Counted from the first letter of the stretch, positions 8,383 to 28,786 are shown. The stretch: 64,000 bases of DNA from Psilocybe cubensis (GCA_017499595.2 CM039002.1:1984001-2048000); one strand, 5' to 3'. The notes: generated by a model not told the origin, from the letters alone. Program-made: numbers and translations.

Positions 8383-9674
8383 TTATATAGTAGTGTTGTA
8401 CCCCCAAGCGCGCAAGTTGTGCTTGACAAGCTCGGCGACCATAAGCGACGGTCTCGTATGCTGGGGCTGGAACTTGCTCGCTGCAAGCCCACGGACAAGC
8501 CAGGCCTCGACGAGAATATTGCCCCATCCAAGCACCCAAAGCATGGACCACATCCATCCCCAAAACCCACGCACCTTCCTCCCCGTCACACTCTTGAACG
8601 CAAACTCCAACACGGTGCCTACACCCATCATCAAAAAGAAGCCCGCGGCACCATAAAAATCCGTGCCCCGCCCCATCCCCCACAGACCCCAATAGTGCAA
8701 TAGGCCCGAGACGAGGAACGCACCGGCCACGCCGCCCAAGCGGCCGAAGAGGATGTATCCGGGGTACCCGCCGAAGGCGATGAAGTTGTGGCGGAAGAGC
8801 TGGTGCCAGCGGAGGCTCCAGAAGAGGTTGAGGGAGGTGGTGAACCAGGGTGCGTCGAAGAGCGGGGGCCACTGGTCGGGTGACTGGCGGAGGAGGACGA
8901 GGCCGATGAGTGTGGCGGTGTAGTAGAGCAGCTGGATGGCGTGGTAGACTGCCAGACCGGCGAGGAAGCAGATGAAGGACGAGCGGAGGTAGCGGAGGGG
9001 CGCGGGGAGCGCGGGGTCGAAGATGGACGCGCCGAGGGGGTTGGAGAGGTCGCCGAAGGATTGCACGGAAAAGAGGAGAAAGTCGAAGAGGTGGTAGTGG
9101 AAGAGGAGGGAGAGGAGGGAGGAGAGGATGAAGGAGGGCGGGTGGGCGGTGTTGCGGCTGTCTTTGGTGACTTTGAGCCCTGTGGACCAGGACCAGCCGA
9201 TGCCGCGCAGGCTGAAGAAGAGGTCGAAAGAGTCGAGGATGAGGCCGTTGGATTTAGCGCGCTTGTACGGCTCGAGCTGGAAGGTCCATATCGTCGCGCG
9301 TATGCCCAGCGTGATCATGGCCAGCTTGATTAACAGTCAGGGGGAGGAGTGGGCAGAGGAGATGGGATACGCACAAGGAGGCCTTGGTTCATGTACACCA
9401 GGCTGGGTTCCTCTGCATAGCCCTTTGCTAGATCTATCTGGGTGGATGCTTTGAATGTTGTATAGAGGGTTATGGGCAGCAGAGCGAGGCGGATGGGATA
9501 TGTCCGGGGGATGAGCACGAGCAGGCCGGTGAGATAGTAGAACAAGATGGGCGGCAAAATGTCTTGTGTGAATGTGTGCACTGTCAGCGGCTGGCGGCTA
9601 GCTGGGTCGGGTATCCTGCAAAGACAGTCAGCGAGGGAGACAGAAAAGAGAAAATCAACCAACCAGGCAGACAT
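8383..9674 (-). CDS. Membrane-bound O-acyltransferase (wax synthase / MBOAT_2 family)
   Basis: LRGIGWSW; WPPLFDAPWFTTSLNLFWSLRWHQLFR; AFLVSGLLH (catalytic His). Start is 9674 or 9689. Confidence 0.88.
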
Positions 9675-9787
9675 GGAGGAGAGAGCCATTGCAGCGCAGT
9701 CATTGTCGATTCTTTGGGGGCGCTGGCTAAATATAAAGCGCGATCCCCTTCCGGCTAATCAAGCGCCGTGCTTCTCCTTCATCTAGT

Positions 9788-10923
9788 ATGGCCATATACA
9801 GAGACCCAAGCATCCGGCCAAGTCTAGAGCCACACAGATATCACATCCAAGACCACGAGCGCCAATTCTTTCTCCTCCTCACCGGCATCAAAGATGACCA
9901 GCAATTAAGGGGCCATATCTTGGCTGTCCAGCAAAAAGCCTATCAGGTTCACACTATTCTTTTCCAATTCACATCAGCTCACCCTCTTCAAGATCCACAG
10001 CTACGCCTGCATCCGTCGTTTTTCTTTCATCAAGTATACCCTTTCCCAATCCAATATTCCATTGCTCATTCTACCAGACTCAAGATTGCCCAAATTCCGG
10101 GATACTACAACGCACTCAAGCTACTCGACAAACGCACAGATCCCATCCTCCTCGATCTAGGCTGCTGCTGTACGTCATCTCTCCTCCCTCAAACACACTC
10201 TCACCTATTTTTCAGTTGGAAATGACATAAGAAAAGCAGTCGTCGACGGCTGGCCCGTCCAAAATGTTATAGCCTCCGACCTCCGCCAAGGTAAGCCAGA
10301 GTCACCCACAAACACACACAACACGCTAACTCACCCCTCCAACAGAATTCTGGGATGCAGGCCACGAGCTCTTCAAATCCACCCCCGAGTCCTTCCCAGC
10401 AGCTTTCATCGCAGGCGACATCTTTGACCCCTCCATGCTCGACATCGACATCGACATAGCACCAACCCCCACAGACAACGATATCCGCCCACTCACCTCC
10501 CTCACCACCCTAACCCCTCTAAAGCACCGCGTATCCGCAATCCACGCCTCCTCCTTCTTCCACCTCTTCAACGAGGACCAACAGCGCTTGCTCGCACTGC
10601 GCCTCGCAGCGCTCCTCCTCCCAGAGCGCGGGAGCATCATCTTCGGCCAGCACGGCGCGCGCCCGGAGAAGGGGTTCCGTATCGAGGTTGCGGCCAACTC
10701 TTCCGCAGACGCAGAACCCAACCCCACCAAACACGCAATGTTCTGCCACTCCCCCGCAAGCTGGAAACACCTCTGGGAACAAGACATATTCGGGCCCCAT
10801 CAACCCACCCGCGTCAGAGTCGACGCCGAACTCCAGGAAACGACGAATGAACGCTGGGATTTCGAGGATTTGGGCACGAACTTGAAGGTTTACGTTATGA
10901 ATTGGTCTGTTGAGGTTATTTGA
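9788..10923 (+). CDS. Class I SAM-dependent methyltransferase (AusD/AdrK-like fungal family), multi-exon
   Basis: ILLDLGCC.GNDIRKAVVDGWPVQNVIASDLRQ; EFWDAGHELFKSTPESFPAAFIAGDIFD; IHASSFFHLF. Confidence 0.85.
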
Positions 10924-11532
10924 TTTGCATTTTGGATTTTGGGATCGTCGGCGTTGGTAATTTGAGGTAATTTTTGCAAGAGGCGGGCGGAGGCATGTGA
11001 ATTATTGATATCGATATACCTTCCGATCCGGAGTTTGGGTTTGAATTTTGTCATCACCTTTCAATCCCGGTTTTGTTTCGTTTTTCGTTTTCCGTTTTTC
11101 GTTTTCCGTTTTTCGTTTTTTCGTTTTTCCCTCATCGTTTCCCTCAGCCTTTTCCTCATCCTTTTCCTCACATTCGCGTTGTATTACTTAGTTGTAGTTG
11201 TACCATCAGTTATCGGAGGATACAGCGATCATTCCAACCAGACGAACATTCAAGTTATCTCAAGTTATGATCGTTCAAGTAAAAGTAAAAGTATCAAGTT
11301 CAAGTAAAAGCACAAGTACCAAGTACACCACAATTTCTTTTCTTCAAAATGTCGTAGACTCGTAGACTCGTAGGCCGTACAGTGACCGGTACCGGTGATT
11401 TTGAGTTCTCGCGATTCGCACTGGCAATGGCAATGGGATACAACCTTGACCCTCTTTTTTTTTAAAAAAAAAATTTTTTTAACCGTGTTTGTCCATCCTG
11501 TATTCGCTGACATTTAATCGCTTCTTTTTCAC

Positions 11533-11726
11533 TATGGGGGACCGCATTGGACAATATTAAATAATAGGTGTGATTTAAAAATATCAGGCAGAGCTAGGAA
11601 AACCTGAGTCATCAGCAAAAAATCTACCCGTCTACAAAAATACTGCCATCATTTCAAAAGTACTAAAAAGGAAAATTCTGTGGAATGGCCAAAAAGTCTA
11701 GTTTGTAACAAAAAAGTCGCCTCTGC
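11533..11726 (+). repeat. Left TIR of outer element
   Basis: Reverse complement aligns to 28572-28772 with scattered transitions and one small indel. Confidence 0.9.
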
Positions 11727-13094
11727 TGATAATGCATAAGTTCTTCTAAATTGTATTTGGAGGCTAGTTGAGTTCTTGGCCTTGGTAGCCATCTTTGCCA
11801 ATTTTTATTACTGTGCAGTAAATCTACAAAACCCAATGTTTTAGGTAGATCTAAATTTAATCAAATCATTTGGTTAAAATTTGGGAGACCCAAAAACATT
11901 TGGATAACATTTAAGTTGCATTTGAGAGCCCCCAAAACATTTAGGGTTCACCCAATGTTGACACAATGATATGTTTTGCATATTTCTACTCCTGGCAGCC
12001 ACTTCATGTATTCACACAACAGGATGTAACAATTCATTGAAAAATTTTATTGAAAAAGATTCAAAACAACAGAGGCTACTACGGTTGGCGAGACAGCTCA
12101 GGTCTATTTCAGCTTCGATTTGCAGATTTTAAGGGTTACATCTGGGGTCTCTGGCACCGCTGGATAATACCAAACACTTCTATATCGCTGTCTGTGACAG
12201 AGTCAACGGCTTGTATTATCGAATGCCGTCCGACCTCGGACAACATACAGGGGGTTGCTCTAGGTATGAGGAGGTTTTTAAGTTGTCAAAAACATACATG
12301 ATGTACAAACAGATACAATTGCAAGTAAATCAACGTAGTACTAGTATGTGCTCGATGAAAATAATACTACTTTACATCTACAAGTTCGTCAGTAGCCTGG
12401 TGTTATGGTAGAGGACAGCTCCGGAGGCCGTAGGGTTGGGGGTAAATAACCGGTCATGTGAATAATGACGCAAAGCCGGGGACTACAGCCAGTGGCAGGC
12501 TGATGGTGTGCGTCATCACTTTTGGAGAGCACAAGCGGTGTTTGCAAAAGTGAATAAGTCTTTTGTTCGCCCGGCCATGTAACGAATAGGTGAGTAGATT
12601 ATTCTCAAAATAGTGTCGAGGTTTACTAGAGCCTATTTTTTCCATCTAAGATGCGCTGTTGTGCCAACCAAATTTCCTTGCTCTCATGGAAATTTGAATC
12701 ATGTCACCGCCGTTGGGTTGGTGCGAGGCTTTCAAATTTCATGCATGAATCCCAGGCTGGGAGGTATGAGACCCTCTACTGCTTTTTTCCGCCTCTCATA
12801 CCTGCTACCTTGCCAGCCAAAACCCTACATGTACAGCTTGTTGTGTATGTTACCCAATACTTGAAACCGCCCATAGCTGCTAGGATAATGTCGGAAGAGT
12901 GATTTTGCTGCGGAGAATATTGGTTGGAATCAAGGTCTGTCACTATTTACTTTTCACATCCTCTCCCTTCTTCTCGAAAATGGCTACCCAGGAATCCTCA
13001 TGCCTGGGCATATACTGGGCAGCCAGCATTTTCTTACTCATTCACTTCACCCTCGTGTTTGTCATGGCTGATTCTACTTCTCACTGCTGCCAAT

Positions 13095-13510
13095 AACTGC
13101 CGCCGCCATCGCCGCTCGTCATCACTACCACTGCTTGTCATCATCACCACCACTTACCACTGCTTGTCATTGCCATCGCCGCTTGCTGTCACCACCCACT
13201 ATTGCTATTACACTTGTAATAACTGCTCGTCATAGCCGCACCCCATCACATTCACCACTGTTTTCCACCGTTATTCCTCATAATTGCTCATTGTTTTGCT
13301 CCTGCTTATTGTTCCGTCCCTGTTTGTCATTTTGCTACTGTTCATTGTTCCACCACTGCATATTATTACCACCACCGCTACTTGTCACGACTACCCACCG
13401 CGGTCCGCTTGTCATTCTCGCCGTCACTCAATGTCGCCAACTCTTATTGTTGTGCACCACTGCTCGTTGTGCACTACTTCTTGTTTTGTCATCACCCCTT
13501 GTTGTCACCG
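13095..13510. repeat. Degenerate low-complexity repeat (CAC/CAT/GCC/GTC-rich)
   Basis: Recurrent caccac/ctgcttgtcat-like units; produces spurious ORFs in all frames. Confidence 0.55.
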
Positions 13511-14282
13511 CTAATGCTCAATATTACTTTGTTAGATTTTTATTTCCAAGTCTTGCTGTGCTATTTGTTCAAAATACTTTTATTTTTTTTGCGTTGTAAG
13601 GCATGCAAAATGTTTTGAATAAAAAACATAATATTCCTTGCACCAACCAACAATAACAAAACAGGCAAAACTCATAGAGCGCCTGAAGTCAACATCGTTG
13701 GGAGAGATACGTTATCTGCAAAGATAAGATTATATATGGTCACATGACAATTGCACGCCAAATCAGATAAGATTGAAGGTTCACAATTATTGATCAGTAA
13801 CCAGCACAGCCATAGGAGCAGCAATCAGACAGCGCATAGCCTCATATCTAAAAATAGATAATCAGCACAGCCTATTTGATGTGTTGTCAAGGCAACATTC
13901 TTGAACATTCCATTGACTAATAACAATGACACATATTAGTAATCTCCTGCTCGGCGCTTAGTGAACACAATAGAAACGCTTATAAACCACCATCCGGCGC
14001 TTACTTGCTCTGCCAAAAGTAGCCAGAACAATAGAATTAGGATTGGTAAGAGGTTTAGAGTTTAATCAGCCTATCCCTATATGGAAATCACTATTGTGAT
14101 TATGTAAGCTTAGGAAAAGGTATATAAAGGCTCAGAAAATTTTGGGCAGTAGCTAAGTTTCCCTTTTCAATAGCACCCCAAAACTTGCTCAAACCCTGTA
14201 ATTGCTAGTTATTTCTTGCAATAAACTTATACTACTTAAACTCTGCGTGTCTGTTATAACAATCAAGTTCAGTCTAAACCAA

Positions 14283-14560
14283 TCCGTCAGTTCCGTCCGT
14301 CAGTTCCGTCCATCAAAATCCGTCCGTCAGTTCTGTCCGTCAGTTCCATCCGTCAAGTTCCGCCTGTCAATCAGTCAGTCAGTTCCGTCCGTCAGTTCTG
14401 TCCGTTAGTTCTGTCCGTCAGTTCTGTCCGTCAGTTCCATCCGTCAGTTCCGTCCGTCAGTTCCGTCCGTCAATTCCATCCGTCAGTTCCGTCCGTCAGT
14501 TCCGTCCGTCAATTCCGTCCGTCAGTTCCGTCCGTCAGTTCCGTCCAACAGTCAAACCAA
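14283..14560. repeat. Tandem minisatellite, about 13-bp unit CCGTCAGTTCCGT
   Basis: Roughly 20 units, most homogeneous at 14385-14545. Confidence 0.92.
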
Positions 14561-14900
14561 CCGTCAAATTGCCACTTTAAATACTGAGCTTTAGGTGTGT
14601 TACTCAAATATAAAATTTTACTAACAAATATTCTTTTCAGATTAACTTCCTTAAAACACATTAAATATTTCTACACATACCTGCCTCTAATTGCACTTGA
14701 GAAAACTTGTGGAAAACACACCAAATTGATTAAAACCTTGAATCCATCGAACAACTGGAATAATCTGATATTTGACTATCCGGTGAAACCCAGGTGAACT
14801 TAAAAATCACGTTGACAGCGTAAGCATTCTGAACGATACAATTTTTTAGCAAAACATACAAAATGGTACTGGAAAAGGTCTACTTCAAACCCTAATTAAT

Positions 14901-17424
14901 CTATTCGGTAATAAAGGAGAGTTTACTCTTTTTGGATCTTTCTTTTTCAGGAGAAGATTCTCGAAGAACGATGTGCTTCAGCTTCAAGGCTTTGCACACC
15001 CAATTCATGTCCTTGTTGCATAAGGTCCTGTGTTCCTCAAGAAACTGTTCAATCTTGCGAGCACCACCATCTCAGTAAACAGGGGATTCTGTGGTTCTGT
15101 TTACAATAGTTAACATTTGAGAATTAGTACAAGAATTAAGCAACCGTGAACGTACGAATAATATTGTGGGTCAATTAGACACATGATTCCTTGTTTATCT
15201 CGAGCGCCTATGCAAAGTTTGTTTCAATTTCTGTCCATGCTTGGTACACATAATCTTACCTTGTAAATCACAAAACAATAGCTGATTGTCGGAATAGACG
15301 GCACTAAAATGGGCAAATGCATGAATGGCTTGGGCGAGGTGATCTTCAGGATTTTCTGCAATGTTATTTCCAGTAAATTTTCGGATTCCTGGATCTGCCT
15401 CTCCACAAGAAAGTAGGAGAGTAGCAATAAAGTATGGACAAGGCAGTGGAAAACCATCTGAAGCGGGTGATGGAACAATTTCGCCAAAGATTGAAGAAGC
15501 AAAGTTAAAATAAAAACCTTTTATGTGCCTCATTTAATCGCCACAAAGAATTTCAAAAGAATAAGCGCTTACGAGAAATGGTTTTCATGTTGACTTGTAT
15601 TGCAAGTTTGTCAAATTCTGCCTTAAATGCGTCCCCTTGGCATAACAATTTGTATTCCTCCCGAAGCACATGTTGTGCCGTGGAACTGGAAATACCAACT
15701 GGTTGAGTTAATACATATTCCTTTCCACCAAATTGTGCCTGCAATGAGGGATTATCAATCATCTGTCATCAAAATTAGAAGGTGCACATACATAGATTCC
15801 CCTCTTTGTAAACCCTTCTCCAATAAATCCCGAGTCTGATTTTGAATGCCATTTTTCGGCAATTTCAATTGTTTCTTCAACCATCTCTTTAGTCCATACA
15901 AGGTGACCCGTCTGAATATCATACGTCACAGAAGTCCGAATAAACTTATAAGGAACCATCTGCACGTTTCTTGTCCAGCTACCAGTATTATCTGAGGCTT
16001 TCATCCGTAGCCATGCGCTTTTCAAAACTACCACCTGGTCCTGCGAGTTAGTAGCTTTAGCAGAAAATAAAGCACTACGGGACCCGTGTGCTTCCTTTCT
16101 CAAGCGACGAGAAGAGCCTGCAGGTATGCTTCGTTTCCTTTTGTTCCCCAACAAAGCCAGGCTTACACCAAGACATTCAATGCCATCGGAATCATCATCA
16201 TCTGACAACACACTGCCGCCTCCACCATTAAACTGTGTATTATATTTTTCTATTAGTAGACTGATTAAATTGATATATCACGCTTACTCACCACCTTGGT
16301 CTTCTCGTATGTTAGTCGTATATCAATTTCACGATTTTCAAGCTTCTTCTGACTACCAATCTTTTTTTTCAAGAATTCTTCTTTAAAAAGAGTCACCATA
16401 GATTTTGCTTGGTCAAAATGCTGAAGAGACGAGAATCTAGTCTGATTCTCTTGGGCATAGACAGAAACATTTGCCCTGTTATTCCTGTCAATGCAGCCCA
16501 TAGTCACAAACGACAAAATGTGCAAGGCATACCAAGTAAGTTGTTCTGTTCCCGGATGCTTTGCTTCAAAATCATCCCTAATTCGTAACAGAATCTTGTC
16601 AAAAGCAAGCTTCGTTGAAATGTCGGGATCAAATCTTTCAATAATTTGAAATTCCTTCATCTAGACGGAAATAGATTGTTAGACATTGAAGGTAAAGCAT
16701 AGTCATGTGCCAAAAAAGCATACTACAGGCATACCTGGTTGAGCTTGTTTCTATTTGACTCCTACAAGCAGGCCGTAACACGGATACCGTTATCGAGTAA
16801 CTTGGCTTCTTCTTTCTTAGCCTTTCTTACTGCTTGAATTTTAGCAGCGGAATCAAGATTACGGTTTTTGCTTTGAAATCCAACCAATCCCGGACTTTTA
16901 TAGGCAATTGGGGTCTGAGCTAGACGTGTATTTGAAGCCTTTTTCATATGCTCGCTAGCTGCCTCCATAATGGAATCTACTAGTAAGTTTTCTGACGGCA
17001 TATTTTGAACGGTGGCATCGTCTTGTGGTACCTCTTTTTTAAAAATAAGCTCTGGAACACCAGGTAGGCCTAAAATGCTAGTAGGAATAGCATCGGCTTT
17101 CTCTAGTATGTTTGTTGTGAGTTATCATATTAAAGATAGATTGACAATGGCAGTCAAATGGTACGTACTATAGTGTTTGATACAGATCTTACAGATCGGA
17201 TGCTCAAGACCTGGAGTCACAAGTCCGCATCCGGCACATTGTAGATTATTCTAGCAAAAGTTTGATTAGAAGAAAAGGTTACTAGTAAATAAGTTACTGA
17301 CCATCAAAGTATATAATTGTAATTGTGAAAGTCCTGCGCGTTTGCCTAGGCATTTTCCACATTTTTCATTTGGTTCCAGGCGAGGAAAGCTAAAGCCACA
17401 TCCACCAGCACAAAATAGGGTCAT
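14901..17424 (-). pseudogene. Alpha-kinase (MHCK/eEF2K-like) with N-terminal Cys-rich putative Zn-binding domain; two in-frame stops
   Basis: N-term CAGGC..CGKC..CAGC..CKIC; kinase motifs FIGEGFTKRGIY, RKFTGNN, IHAFAHFS, LLFCDLQG, CLIDPQ, Y*DGG, H..LC...VC..L. TAG at 16762-16764 and TGA at 15072-15074. Confidence 0.82.
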
Positions 17425-17643
17425 AGTAAGGTTACAAGGACGGTTTACACCAGTGTATGTTTGAACCTAACAATAGACTATAAAAAATGAACTTTGTTTA
17501 TGTTCACCAGACCTGAACCGTTCCGAGATCTGAGCTCAACGGAGACCTGATCTATCCTTCTTAATAAGGAATGATTAAATTGTATTCAAGTAAGTATTCT
17601 CAGAATTTAATTGACTTAGACGCCTACAAAGAATTTTGTTTAT

Positions 17644-19209
17644 CTATGGAAAAAGAATAGGAAGCATGCGTCCAAAGATTACCCAAACATTTCCCAAGGT
17701 AAGACGGTCAGAAAATCCTAATGAGTCAAATGCTTTCTGTGCTTCGTTAGCAAATTCAGCGGATACAAAGCTCAAGAGCTCTTCGCCTCCCATCTTCTCC
17801 TTAATTTCTCGAACCACATCAAGATCAACCGGTTGAAGACAATTAATCCCTCCCCATCTCTCCGGAAATAAAAAAGCCTCATTCCGAGAGCAACCAGATG
17901 GGCCTGCCTTTTTGGAATCTTTACGCATGCGAACACCATTTTGGAACTCCATAAATTGATCAAGCTCGCACTGTAGCATTCGTGGCCAAAGCCAAAGACA
18001 TAACTGCCTATTAAATATAGTAAATTAGAATGTGCCCCAGATGAATTAGAATCAAATAAACATACTTTTGACGGATATCATCTGGATTATACAGACCGGC
18101 ATCAATTCCTCGGTTGAAAATGATAACTGCATTGTTTCCCCATTTGAGGCGAAGGCGTAGCCATGATCTCTCAATTGAAATATTATGTACACTTCGAAGG
18201 TAAACATGTGCCGGCAGTTCTGAGGAATCCAAATTCGCTTGAAATGCATTTCTATATCAGGATAGGCAAACTCGAAACGCTGCAGTAGTACACAAATATA
18301 ATACTAAGCATACCGCAAAGCATTGATTAATCCATAGAGTTGAGTAGTCTCAGAGCCACAGTCTGTTGTGAACTGAAGCGGCATTCCTAAAGCAAAATAA
18401 CAATGTAAATGTTTATGATAGAATACATAATTGAAAAATCTGGACATACCACCCATTTTTTCCACAAGAACCAGAAATAGGTACCCTATAACTGTTGCCA
18501 AGCGATTGCTAGGAACAACCCAAGCTCCAATCCATTTAGAAGTTGCATCATCAACAACACCCCATATTGGAAACCCAATGCTGTTGAGTTTATTGTGACC
18601 ATCACCGGACCAACGCTCATTGATACCAATCGGTGCTTTCCTAACCCGGAAAACCTTCTTTGATGTCGGTTTCCGAAGATCAAATCCGTCAGGATCTTGA
18701 ATGTGCATGATATCGGAGACAAAATCACGGGGTAAATGTATCCCATAATTGCTGGCAATGCGAGCACGAATTGTGGAAACTCCACGTCCTTTGCTAGGAT
18801 CGTCATTAAGCTCAAGAATGATATACTGAACTTTCTCCGAGTAAGACATTTCTCGTTGGTTGACTCTACTTCCAACCAACCCAAGGTCATTTCGGCGCCT
18901 CTTAACAGTAGAAAGGCTGTATAATATATCCATTGTTTATTAGTAAAAATTACAACTTTTAGTTCAAATACAAATATACCTTATTTTGAGCCCTAGCTCT
19001 CTTTCAAGATGGGAAGGAATATCCTTCACTGCGACCAGTTCTCGGTGATACCACTCAAATGCCTCACGGAGTTCGACGTCATTGGCATCGGCTAGTCACA
19101 CAAACAAGACTTGAGCACAAATAACAGAAAACAAAAAATCATTGAAATGTTACTCACGGACTTTAGCATATTGATTTTGACCAATGGGATTTTGATTATA
19201 CGATGACAT
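17644..19209 (-). CDS. Integrase-core (IS3/IS481-like) DDE transposase, 6 exons, no stop seen
   Basis: MSSYNQNPIGQNQY; HTH-like ERELGLKISLSTVKRRRNDLGL; WSGDGHNKL (D1); PLQFTTDCGSE (D2); SVHNISIERSW (E); WLWPRMLQCELD. Confidence 0.85.
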
Positions 19210-22200
19210 AATTCTAGACAGGACATTCAAACATTAGCAAGACAGGAAAAATTTATAATAGAAACATACCTAATTCACCAATGATAGAGTAGCAGCGGTA
19301 ACAAGCTAGTAAGTGGCTGTTGCTGTGGACTTGTCGTTTCATTGCCCAGTATATATAGGAAAAACAGCATAAACAATTTGACTATTCTTTCAGAAATTGA
19401 CGGACTTGAAGTCTCAAACCCAATGCCCAAATTTCTCAAAGTCCAAAGTATTACGTCCTAGAATGGATGCAGAGCGCGGTAGAATGCAGGCTTTGAGAAA
19501 TTCTTAATGAGCAAATTTTTGCTCCGTGCAACGTGCAATTGTTCAAGAACATTTCTTTGCACACATTATTAAGTACAGGTAAGAGAAGAGAGGTTTATCT
19601 TGCTACTAGAAACCTCATATCCTTGTGCAATTAAATAAAATCGGACTCTTACTCAGCACCGGTCAAGGCATAGAAGCTCAGAGTACCAACAATGGACTCA
19701 TACCCTTGTGCAATGCGGCAGTAAAGTCAGGCCATTAGTGAATTTTAGAGCACCAATGGCTGACTCGTGTCTTTGCATGGTGCAGTAGAATCAGGCCATT
19801 ACTGAGCACAAATAAAAAGTGGAAGCATAGAGTGCCAACCCGGCCAATATGTTGACGTTCTAAAGATGTACTTTCTCACTAATTGCCGCCTGTTTTATCT
19901 AAGTCCCACTTTCACCTTGCTCGTTCAGCCACATTACCTTGCTTGTAATTATTTGTAAACTGATCGATACAATATGAGTACAAGTTCTTGATGCCTTTCG
20001 GTCTTTGGGTACGGAATACGCACGACGGCGGGGTGAGAATACACGGTGGCAAAATCACCGAGTGTGACAATAAAAGTGGGTATACAGAAGACAGATAGGA
20101 GACCTGTATTACATACACGGACCCCAATGCCAAAAATACGCGATTCGAACTTCAAATCAGACCTGAGCTGTCCCGCCAACCGTAGGCTACATAGAAATGA
20201 CTAGGAGAAAACGGATTCAAGTTCATAAAATCTGGGCGCTGGGAAAACGTTACGGAGTCACGTGATTGAATTGACGTGCTACAAAATCTACACCGGTTGA
20301 TGAGTCACGGTCAAGTAAACGTAAATATATGCGCATATATGTACCAACAAGGTGACCAGAATGGGTTTCTGGTTATTAAATACACTCTAGAGAAGGCAGT
20401 AATTAAGGCAGAGAGAAAAAAGCCATGAAAAGGTATAAAACAGTCAGTTAGGCTTGTGTGATGAAAAAGAGAGCATGTCTTTCACCTTTTGAGCTCTATT
20501 TACAGTTATGAGGTGCAGAAAAAGAGGCATAGCAATGTTGATTGAAACCAGAGAGCACCGTAGTCAGAGTGGTGGACATGAAAGGGTAGAAAAAAAGCGA
20601 CTTGGGCATGTCTCAGATTCTTATGCTCAAAACGGATGTTCAGTCTCCAATTTAATTTGTCAGCAGAGACGGGCCTCTCTAATTTATTTTTCTTGAAGTT
20701 AAATTTCCCACGTACATGTAATTCTTATGACAATGGTGTTGTATTGGAAACAACCTCCCAGTGTCATACGTATTACGTGTGGTCAGTAAAATTTCTTGTA
20801 CCTAAATCATTTTTAACATATTTGAAGCCCTTTAATCATTTGTGTCAGCAAAAAGTTAAACTCAATGTTTTATTCTTTGTTTTTATTTTTAATCAATTGT
20901 TCCCTGCAAGTTTTATGGCAAACAAATCATTAAGAGATAAATGTAAGTACATGGAATATTTTGTACTGAACTTTGAGGTGTATAAATGTTTGTGGAGCAT
21001 TCAAATGCTCTCCAAATGTTTTGTGCACCTCCAAATTTTAGTGAAATGTTTTTGTGTAACTTAACATGTCATGAAAAACATTGACCTGCTTAAAAAGGCA
21101 CAAAAGGCATTTGGATATCTGGTCACTTTTGCCGATGTAGATGTCCATACTGGCAATGCAGGTATAGACCACAAAAATGAGGAGATCAAAAGTCTCTGCT
21201 ATCGTTATGTTATCCCTTGTTCCTCTGAGGCAGATGCTTGGTATGTCTTCCACTAAAAAGACCTAGACACCAAAATGTTAGCTAGATGTGCAATAAACCC
21301 AAAAAGTCTGAAGCCTGACATTGATTTTTTTACCATCAACAGGCAATACTTTGGACCTAGTAACACTTTTTAAAAAATGTAATGACCTTTGGAGCCTAGA
21401 ATCTTACGGTGGGTCTTCTGCCATTTTATTGACTAAACCTACAACATGTTTAGGGAATGGGTGTCTGGTTCCATTCAAATAGTTGGCCAGATAGTTGCGC
21501 ATCAGTATGATAAAATTTGATTGGCAGTTTAAACAGGTGTTTCTTGGTTGGATATACAAAATTGTGATTCTGCTTAACAGTTGGGTAGGGGATTTCAATT
21601 TCCTACTGCAAGCTTCCAAAATAAGTGCCTTGGAACAAGATTTCCAGGTATATATAGATAAAGTCAGTAAAAAGCAGCCAATAGAGACACTTGACCAACC
21701 TCTCCAAAGGTAGATAAAGGACAAGGGAAAGGGATAAGTAGCCCCTTTTTGAAAGCCTAAAATTCAGGGAAGCAATCAATCTGGTCGTGTTTTAGACCAA
21801 AAAAGCAGCCCAGAACAAGTGCTTCCTTTAGAATTGCTCTTTGCTCAGACATAAAATTTTGGATTGACTAGGATTTTATTAAATGTAATGTTAAACAAAT
21901 AAGTAAAAAAATAAACCTCCATGGATGTCCCAGTCAATATCACTCTGATAGTCTAGGTCAGAATGGAGTTAGTAGTATCAATAGACTTTGCAATATTGTC
22001 AAAAACAGATGCCCAAGCACTGTTTAGAGTAGGGTATAGTTTAACAAGCCATTTCCGGTCAGAAATAAAAGAATCAATGCCCTCAATTGCGAATTAGAAT
22101 AGAGCAGAGCTCAGACAAGATGGAAGAAAATAGACCTTGTAAATAATAAAGGCCAACACAACTCTGAGAATGAAATACTTATTTTGTATTTCTTTGGTAA

Positions 22201-28571: not shown

Positions 28572-28786
28572 GCACAGGCGAAGGCTTTTTTGTTACAAAC
28601 CAGACTTTTTTGCCATTCCTCAGAATTTTCCTTTTTAGTACTTTTGAAATGATGGCAATATTTTTGTCGACAGGTAGACTTTTTGCTGATGACTCAGGTT
28701 TTCCCAGCTCCGCCCGATATTTTTAAATCACATATGTACGTTATTTAATATTGTCCAATGCGGTCCCCCATACACGGTCCCCTATA
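28572..28786 (-). repeat. Right TIR of outer element
   Basis: Ends ...GCGGTCCCCCATA CACGGTCCCCTATA; inverse of 11533-11726. Confidence 0.9.

Follow-up and report, generated by a model that had tools for sequence, protein, structure and literature searches.

A 64,000-nucleotide stretch of the Psilocybe cubensis genome (GCA_017499595.2 CM039002.1:1984001-2048000), hereafter called the window, carries between positions 12080 and 20184 what is very probably a cut-and-paste DNA transposon of the IS3EU kind, in which an alpha-kinase gene accompanies the transposase as a conserved second gene, an element-level accessory tied to the transposase, and of which the present copy is old and decaying. The element proper measures 8,105 bp, or 8,117 bp when both copies of the target-site duplication (TSD) are counted, and it is bounded by terminal inverted repeats (TIRs) as follows.

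12074-12079, no strand: left TSD copy GGCTAC, read directly and present as a single copy at the empty site.
12080-12105, plus strand: TIR at the 3' end of the element in gene orientation, starting with TACGG, with weaker likeness to the other end until 12130.
20159-20184, minus strand: TIR at the 5' end of the element in gene orientation (repeat finder and mismatch scan).
20185-20190, no strand: right TSD copy GGCTAC, from direct reading and the empty-site data.

The TIRs are 26 nt long with one mismatch and end in TAC..GTA (TACGG..CCGTA); the left end of the element opens with TACGGTTGGCG and the right end is its reverse complement. A repeat finder returned arms of 26-27 nt with 96% complementarity, and beyond the 26 nt a weaker similarity of both ends reaches about 51 nt at 83%. 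When the window was scanned for the TIR 26-mer with up to three mismatches, only these two places were found, with 0 expected from 100 shuffles. Both the TACGG..CCGTA termini and the 6-bp TSD GGCTAC match published IS3EU traits, as complete IS3EU families are described with TA..TA termini and TSDs of usually 6 bp (PMC10045372), and the IS3EU families of rust fungi with 6-bp TSDs, TAYGG..CCRTA ends and TIRs of more than 30 bp (PMC12730594, Kojima 2025).

We compared window positions 10500-21800 with four public sequencing runs (X2, X5, X6 and X11) at 90% likeness. In the raw reads of X11, a joint from 12072 to 20184 was present in 54 reads with 26 start places, skipping 8,111 bp (8,105 + 6), and seven letters were common to both sides of the joint, which is the expectation for GGCTAC plus one base. 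A contig of X6 passed straight from 12079 into 16 letters of 20191-20206 at a depth of 70.6 against about 62, approximately single-copy, and the depth of this run was zero across 12385-13515 and 15024-19924; the run contained a 0.10 share of the sampled words, and two further runs of the same study 0.09 and 0.07. Contigs of X2 bridged both element junctions with 0 differences, and a contig of X5 bridged the right junction, with a 3.5-kb piece within the element carrying 39 differences (about 1.1%). The element is polymorphic, being carried by some of the sequenced runs and absent from at least one. The differences among runs were mostly transitions, with C>T and G>A the commonest.

Depth over both genes was 10.4 in X2 against 9.8-10.2 in the unique flank and 13.4 in X5 against about 12-14 in the flank, and three runs gave single-copy depth for the element, which was not found in the fourth. 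Because gene depth equals the depth of the unique flank, the element is single-copy at a likeness of at least 90%, and no expansion is therefore shown in this genome; the idea in the first-pass annotation that such modules might underlie expanded alpha-kinase families in basidiomycetes is a conjecture. The immediate flanks (about 11825-12079 and 20185-21134) reached, in each of the four runs, 8-13 times the depth of unique sequence. Whether allelic or paralogous, the empty-site reads show an uninterrupted target with one GGCTAC, and hence an insertion with a 6-bp duplication. As a separate observation, the host repeat around the element is about 1.2 kb long. It has loose ends at 11825 and 21137, 11824 is joined to 21135 in three X11 reads, and the host repeat itself thus looks like an insertion; its ends showed no inverted repeat.

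It would be compatible with the single-copy depth, exceeded in none of the runs compared, and with the lack of a further TIR copy within the window that no mobile element exists here and that a host gene pair is flanked by a chance inverted repeat. We consider this exceedingly improbable, given that no chance match was expected for the 26-mer pair, that reads and a contig show an exact empty site with one GGCTAC, and that ten unrelated metagenomic contigs described below hold both genes between TACGG-headed repeats, two of them (L016 and L022) at different sites.

The gene at the 5' side of the element encodes the transposase.

17644-19209, minus strand: transposase gene, intact, 417 amino acids (gene model, homologues, Pfam, exact protein match).
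19209-19158, 19091-18980, 18916-18450, 18386-18314, 18251-18066 and 18007-17644, minus strand: exons of the transposase.

The six exons are separated by GT..AG introns of 58-66 nt and close with a stop codon at 17644-17646, and the 417-amino-acid model is letter-for-letter identical to P0001, annotated as 'Integrase core domain-containing protein, Psilocybe cubensis'. Full-length P0001 matched Pfam rva_4 (E = 4.3e-9, 36.8 bits with a cut-off of 26), and Pfam rve reached 20.5 bits, under its cut-off of 32.6; Pfam searches of single exons gave no match, the full protein being required. In an alignment of 19 relatives the catalytic residues D160 (WSGDGH), D219 (TTDCGSE) and E262 (HNISIERSW) were invariant, and all three are present in the window. 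The N-terminal part of transposase relatives gave weak Pfam matches to HTH_21 and HTH_32, and no HHCC motif was found, there being no Cys or His cluster within the N-terminal 150 residues of the transposase. As in its family, an integrase-core DDE transposase with these three residues and a helix-turn-helix-like N terminus would recognize the TACGG-headed repeats, and insertion would proceed by a staggered cut that duplicates GGCTAC. Among the relatives, one from Mycena venus has a GATA_AreA domain, and two Athelia models are extended at the N terminus by 400-500 unrelated amino acids; the relatives fused to other parts (P0017, P0009 and P0011) may be merged gene models or may carry other cargo.

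The alpha-kinase gene follows downstream on the same strand.

14901-17424, minus strand: alpha-kinase gene, a pseudogene in this copy (homology-guided coding sequence, Pfam, profile search).
17424-17302, 17250-17169, 17102-16735, 16660-16533, 16475-16292, 16232-15792, 15738-15573, 15517-15260, 15207-15156 and 15096-14901, minus strand: coding sequence of the kinase.
16762-16764, minus strand: in-frame TAG at a conserved Trp (the column is covered by 11 homologues, 10 with W and one with Y).
15072-15074, minus strand: in-frame TGA at the Trp of the YWDGG motif (W in 10 of 10 covering homologues).

With twelve homologues as a guide, the kinase frame comprises 665 codons and a final stop, two of the 665 being in-frame stops, and begins with an ATG at 17424, 219 bp past the transposase stop. 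It encodes two N-terminal CxxC..CxxC zinc ribbons and a C-terminal Alpha_kinase domain. The annotated protein P0031 (472 amino acids) matched Pfam Alpha_kinase (PF02816) with E = 3.1e-10 and 40.9 bits (cut-off 21.3), a lone exon reaching 33.6 bits, and a profile of ten kinase relatives matched the solved alpha-kinases 4kuj (8.7e-9), ALPK1, TRPM7 1ia9, MHCK A and eEF2K over the C-lobe motifs. Across the 10 relatives, whose mean column identity was 42%, the core motifs did not vary. In alpha-kinases such as TRPM7 and MHCK A, the DLQG and DPQ motifs and the C-terminal His/Cys module have roles in catalysis and zinc binding. All of these are kept in the present kinase family, and the window copy has CDLQG and DPQ, with the conserved His of DPQxH changed to Tyr (DPQYY) and the C-terminal H..C..C module severed by the TGA at 15074-15072. 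No open reading frame covers the full homologous kinase length. P0031 is exactly encoded in the window, where it starts at an internal Met, skips the TAG via an intron and stops at the TGA; the intron over the TAG is an annotation artefact. The kinase of this copy is thus a pseudogene killed by two nonsense codons. Each of the two stops stands for a TGG codon altered by a G-to-A change on the coding strand.

The first-pass annotation of this stretch had described a TIR- and TSD-bounded IS3EU-type DNA transposon holding a spliced integrase-core DDE gene and, about 220 bp downstream on the same strand, a gene for a zinc-finger and alpha-kinase protein. The ends, the GGCTAC duplication, the published traits and the empty site agree with the first of these claims, the rva_4 match (E 4e-9) and the six-exon, 417-amino-acid model bear out the second, and the spacing of 219 bp and the Alpha_kinase match (E 3e-10) fit the third; the kinase gene is accordingly present as described, but it is not intact, the two in-frame stops having been overlooked. 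This copy is old and decaying, with transposase and TIRs intact, the kinase killed and a 1.2-kb foreign segment in the 3' part, and it is single-copy and lies inside another repeat.

The pairing of the two genes extends far beyond this copy. A transposase profile search gave 80 metagenomic loci, which were scanned with 11 kinase proteins, a kinase match being defined as E of at most 1e-5. At 41 of the 80 loci a kinase lay directly 3' of the transposase, on the same strand in 23 (tandem) and convergent in 18, and 38 loci were too short or cut, so that 41 of the 42 informative loci had the kinase. Only L021 combined a complete transposase 3' end and 1,500 bp or more of downstream sequence with no match at this threshold, and there a frame-shifted, decayed remnant of the zinc ribbon occupied the expected position (E 0.84). 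At E of at most 1e-4 the first kinase exon was also found in two of the short loci. The gap between the genes was 142-464 bp in the same-strand loci, with one at 1,642 bp, and -24 to 417 bp between gene ends in the convergent loci.

Ten of the loci are complete elements with TACGG-headed inverted repeats (23-26 of 26 matches) that span 4.9-10.1 kb and enclose both genes. Among these ten, an exact 6-bp TSD was found in L062 and exact 5-bp TSDs in L016, L022 and L023, of which L016 and L022 are members of a single family with different insertion sites and a separate 5-bp duplication at each. The occurrence of exact duplications of 5 bp (three elements) and 6 bp (two, L062 and the window) in one lineage indicates that TSD length is not fixed. 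In two of the ten, L010 and L070 of a convergent clade, the inverted repeat extends at least 18 nt outward of TACGG, so that the TACGG head is not the terminus there. In named fungi, Flammula alnicola (P0007) and Pholiota molesta (P0074) each have a merged transposase-kinase gene model collinear with the two genes of the window, Tephrocybe rancida and Ephemerocybe angulata carry transposase and kinase under neighboring locus tags, and both genes lie on one 8,930-bp contig in Rickenella mellea and on a contig of the same length in Phlegmacium glaucopus. Full-length kinases of 560-700 amino acids are annotated in many genomes.

We then compared transposase and kinase trees of 25 rows, made up of 22 of the 41 linked loci (those with the longest kinase matches), the window and the two merged models just named; L007, L009, L015, L022, L026, L027, L034, L037, L042, L043, L046, L047, L048, L054, L057, L059, L077, L078 and L080 were left out. 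The two trees had 11 of 22 splits in common, where 1,000 label shuffles gave a mean of 0.26 and a maximum of 2, and their path lengths were correlated with a Mantel r of 0.63, reached by none of 2,000 permutations. Gene orientation required four changes on the transposase tree (shuffled mean 7.5) and two on the kinase tree, as low as in none of 500 shuffles. The congruence of the trees indicates that the kinase has long been travelling with its transposase. At the level of these sequence comparisons, linkage and tree congruence show the kinase as a conserved second gene of the agaricomycete IS3EU lineage, inherited with the transposase and no casual passenger. Of the checks proposed by the first-pass annotation, that on the constant presence of the kinase gave a consistent linkage to this transposase lineage (41 of 42 informative metagenomic loci, ten complete elements and gene models of named fungi), and the co-phylogeny gave congruent trees (11 of 22 splits, r = 0.63). 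The label of a 'passenger' understates a kinase that behaves as a co-evolving core gene. A complex prediction for the Tephrocybe transposase with its neighboring kinase (residues 60-622) gave scores of 0.01 and 0.03 (mark 0.34), which speak neither for nor against binding.

Between the two genes, the element contains a likeness of its own end, which the first-pass annotation had not noted.

17509-17552, minus strand: three copies of an inner-TIR motif (GATCAGGTCT, GCTCAGATCT, GTTCAGGTCT), 17 bp apart, in the transposase-kinase spacer.

These copies have the orientation of the 5' TIR and lie about 85-130 bp upstream of the kinase ATG. For a comparison among relatives, positions 6-27 (a 22-mer) of each element's own TIR were scanned at every position on both strands, with the ends excluded. 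The best internal match fell in the transposase-kinase spacer in all four complete tandem-type elements (the window, L003, L023 and L062), and the same was true of two of three further tandem loci with a 5' TIR (L034 and L047), one position scoring above the spacer in L018, which gives six of seven tandem elements with a known 5' TIR. The spacer accounts for only 0.6-2.8% of the positions scanned, and L018 and L047 look like one family. With 15-19 of 22 letters, the spacer match stood 86-142 bp ahead of the start of the kinase in the orientation of the 5' TIR, and it tracked the family-specific letters of the TIR (L062 agreeing at 19 of 22 positions and L034 at 15 of 15, for example); the internal copies are without the terminal TACGG. 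Convergent-type elements had no consistent internal TIR copy, their best matches of 13-16 of 22 letters falling at scattered places, and their kinase faces the 3' TIR, at about 460 bp in L016 and L022 for example.

The spacer copy is a putative transposase-binding site before the kinase, and its position upstream suggests control of the kinase by the transposase. With the putative site before the kinase in tandem-type elements and the 3' TIR facing the kinase in convergent-type ones, the transposase would bind ahead of both genes. In tandem-type elements, the inner copy would tie kinase expression to the transposase, and the kinase may serve as an element-level accessory factor with the transposase itself or host chromatin or silencing proteins as candidate substrates. 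We tentatively propose, at somewhat less than even confidence, that in basidiomycete IS3EU elements the kinase is a core gene wired to the transposase, in which the putative site before both genes would mediate their co-switching or act as a transposition enhancer and the kinase would act on the transposase or on host silencing factors. On this proposal, the inner-TIR copy of tandem-type elements would be a cleavage-incompetent site that co-varies with the real TIR.

Alternatively, the kinase may be a host gene that was captured once and is passively carried without contributing to the life cycle of the element, and the TIR-like sequence in the spacer would be a relic of a convergent-to-tandem rearrangement. 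The window kinase, with two nonsense codons and a lost His (DPQxH to DPQYY) beside an intact transposase and intact TIRs, is in keeping with such a history, as is the existence of both gene orders (23 tandem and 18 convergent), which means that rearrangement happened; inverting the kinase together with the inner part of the 3' TIR would place such a motif before the kinase in this orientation. Passively transferred enzymes such as TET/JBP are also known from other fungal transposons (PMC12730594). However, a neutral gene should decay everywhere, yet kinases of 560-700 amino acids are annotated in many genomes, the kinase is retained in 41 of 42 informative loci, its core motifs are invariant across 10 relatives at 42% mean column identity and its tree tracks that of the transposase. 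Furthermore, the internal motif follows the family-specific differences of the TIRs, which a relic would not. We regard passive capture as unlikely.

A stronger role, in which the kinase is a required transposition cofactor that binds or phosphorylates the transposase like the helpers of two-gene bacterial insertion sequences, would account for the near-obligate linkage and co-divergence of both genes and for the resemblance of the motif upstream of the kinase to a transposase site, and conserved host-derived proteins in DNA transposons have been proposed as transposition regulators (PMC3520738). On the other hand, the contact between transposase and kinase is putative only, the only full copy in this genome combines a dead kinase with intact ends and transposase, and the related element Styx of Zymoseptoria moves with a different gene set, with no alpha-kinase mentioned in the accessible text on it (PMC10853768, PMC8232023). 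This role is doubtful to us. The reading of the kinase as a conserved accessory gene tied to the transposase is retained in what follows.

The combination of IS3EU ends with a kinase was already in print, and the novelty that the first-pass annotation had attached to the module was overrated. IS3EU transposons are stated to encode two proteins (PMC8232023), and rust IS3EU families to carry transposase and alpha-kinase genes (PMC12730594), from which a two-gene IS3EU with an alpha-kinase is already known. Our literature search for alpha-kinases together with transposons turned up only the latter paper, and the accessible part of a kinome paper reporting a single Alpha_kinase domain in 30 fungi makes no mention of transposons (PMC2838846). 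Neither the tandem form without TET in agaricomycetes nor the near-universal linkage, the congruent trees or the internal TIR copy was found in the literature searched; Repbase or the 2025 supplements may cover some of these.

Compared with the superfamily as described, the present element shares a DDD/E integrase-core transposase without an HHCC zinc motif, TAYGG..CCRTA termini, a 6-bp TSD and two proteins (PMC10045372, PMC12730594, PMC8232023), the likeness to curated transposases being one of description and not of sequence. The TET/JBP-carrying IS3EU families of rusts and Tuber resemble it in their ends and TSD and in having transposase and alpha-kinase in one element (PMC12730594). In those families, however, a TET/JBP gene separates transposase and kinase genes of opposite orientation, whereas here the two are in tandem and 219 bp apart in an agaricomycete host, and no third conserved gene was found. 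The -24 to 417 bp between gene ends in the convergent relatives also leave no room for a TET gene.

Styx/REP9 of Zymoseptoria (PMC10853768, PMC8232023) likewise varies in presence and absence among strains and has TIRs, 6-bp TSDs, a length of about 7.9 kb and several genes, among them an integrase-type transposase related to IS3EU. It differs in having four genes, two of them genus-specific, with no alpha-kinase mentioned in the accessible descriptions, and it is multi-copy and still active in its ascomycete host, while a single, decaying copy is seen here. Intons, a group of fungal transposons that encode five to six proteins and are said to stem from IS3EU ancestors (PMC3520738), share the ancestry and the presence of extra conserved proteins; these host-derived proteins were proposed as regulators of transposition in a 2012 meeting report. 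By description, their five to six conserved proteins compare with two conserved genes found here. In Agaricomycetes, Kyakuja/Dileera/Zisupton and Plavaka elements with TET/JBP likewise carry an enzyme gene, thought to aid the element against host control, but belong to another transposase superfamily and carry another enzyme (PMC12730594). TET/JBP genes switch superfamilies (PMC12730594), whereas the present kinase tracks its transposase. Against the cellular alpha-kinases TRPM7, MHCK A, eEF2K and ALPK1, the HAFAHFS, CDLQG, DPQxH and H..C..C tail motifs align with the solved structures; the transposon-encoded kinase differs by its N-terminal double zinc ribbon and a region of about 300 amino acids without a Pfam family, and its N-lobe is too diverged to align.

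Several points weigh against the interpretation given here. Placement in IS3EU is based on termini, TSD, domain and literature and not on a tree. A profile of 19 transposases gave 0 matches at E of at most 1 to solved structures, and NCBIfam matches were weak and sub-threshold (ISNCY at 5e-4 to 9e-3 and IS3 at 8e-3, on the N-terminal part of one relative). No rust protein was present among the 120 listed of 129 transposase matches, those named being all from Agaricomycetes. The TIRs, at 26 nt with one mismatch and about 83% likeness until 51 nt, are shorter than the more than 30 bp of the rust TET-carrying families (PMC12730594), and three complete close relatives (L016, L022 and L023) have 5-bp rather than 6-bp TSDs, with four lacking a clear TSD. 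As the flanks are a repeat, the empty-site reads may come from paralogous repeat copies and not from an allele. The rows of the trees are pseudo-proteins stitched from tblastn segments, the IQ-TREE searches were 'quick' ones and the 22 of 41 loci were a selection of ours; congruence would also arise if both genes followed the host phylogeny, and shared ancestry could add to the signal. In the internal scan, L018, L034 and L047 had been chosen since an earlier scan had found their TIR match. Transposase binding at the internal site is putative and kinase activity is predicted, and a dead kinase beside an intact transposase means that the element persists without the kinase.

The remaining parts of the element are non-coding or foreign.

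12106-13589, minus strand: 3' non-coding part at single-copy depth, with no conserved open reading frame and no tblastx or blastn match to other elements.
13590-14817, no strand: 1,228-bp segment with TG..CA ends, absent from one X5 contig (joint from 13589 to 14818) and at 3-7 times depth.
19210-20158, minus strand: 5' non-coding region from the TIR to the transposase ATG, with no conserved match outside close relatives.

The 13590-14817 segment, which includes a 13-bp tandem array of 20 copies at 14283-14546, is probably a nested later insertion of another repeat and may be a solo long terminal repeat or another small element. Searches of the 5' and 3' non-coding parts against related elements by tblastx and blastn revealed no third conserved gene for the window; tails matched only inside the L010/L050/L070 clade, where the region contains an undetected N-terminal half of the kinase. 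Outside the element, 28572-28700 is a 91% match on the opposite strand to 11601-11726, left of the element, representing a further repeat copy in the window. The region 8500-11000 has a G+C content of 0.51-0.62, the other bins profiled between 8 and 24 kb lying at 0.31-0.45 except for one of 0.49; it shows strong GC-skew swings and long open reading frames at 10519-11001 and is probably a host gene.

IS3EU is a little-studied superfamily whose second gene has been named in print only in passing. We know of no published account of alpha-kinase function in a transposon. The window provides a cleanly bounded IS3EU example with a documented empty site, and the comparison set presents a kinase that is almost never lost, co-diverges with its transposase and, in tandem-type elements, is preceded by a copy of the element's own end. 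For annotation, it is probable that many mushroom genes called 'alpha-type protein kinase' or 'integrase core domain' each represent half of a single mobile element, and gene callers mask pseudogenes via invented introns around stops, as in P0031. The conserved TIR-like site upstream of the kinase is the most interesting lead, as a putative transposase site in this position turns a 'passenger gene' into a testable regulatory circuit. If the kinase is indeed wired to the transposase, these elements would be self-regulated two-component transposons, with the transposase or host silencing factors as targets of the kinase.

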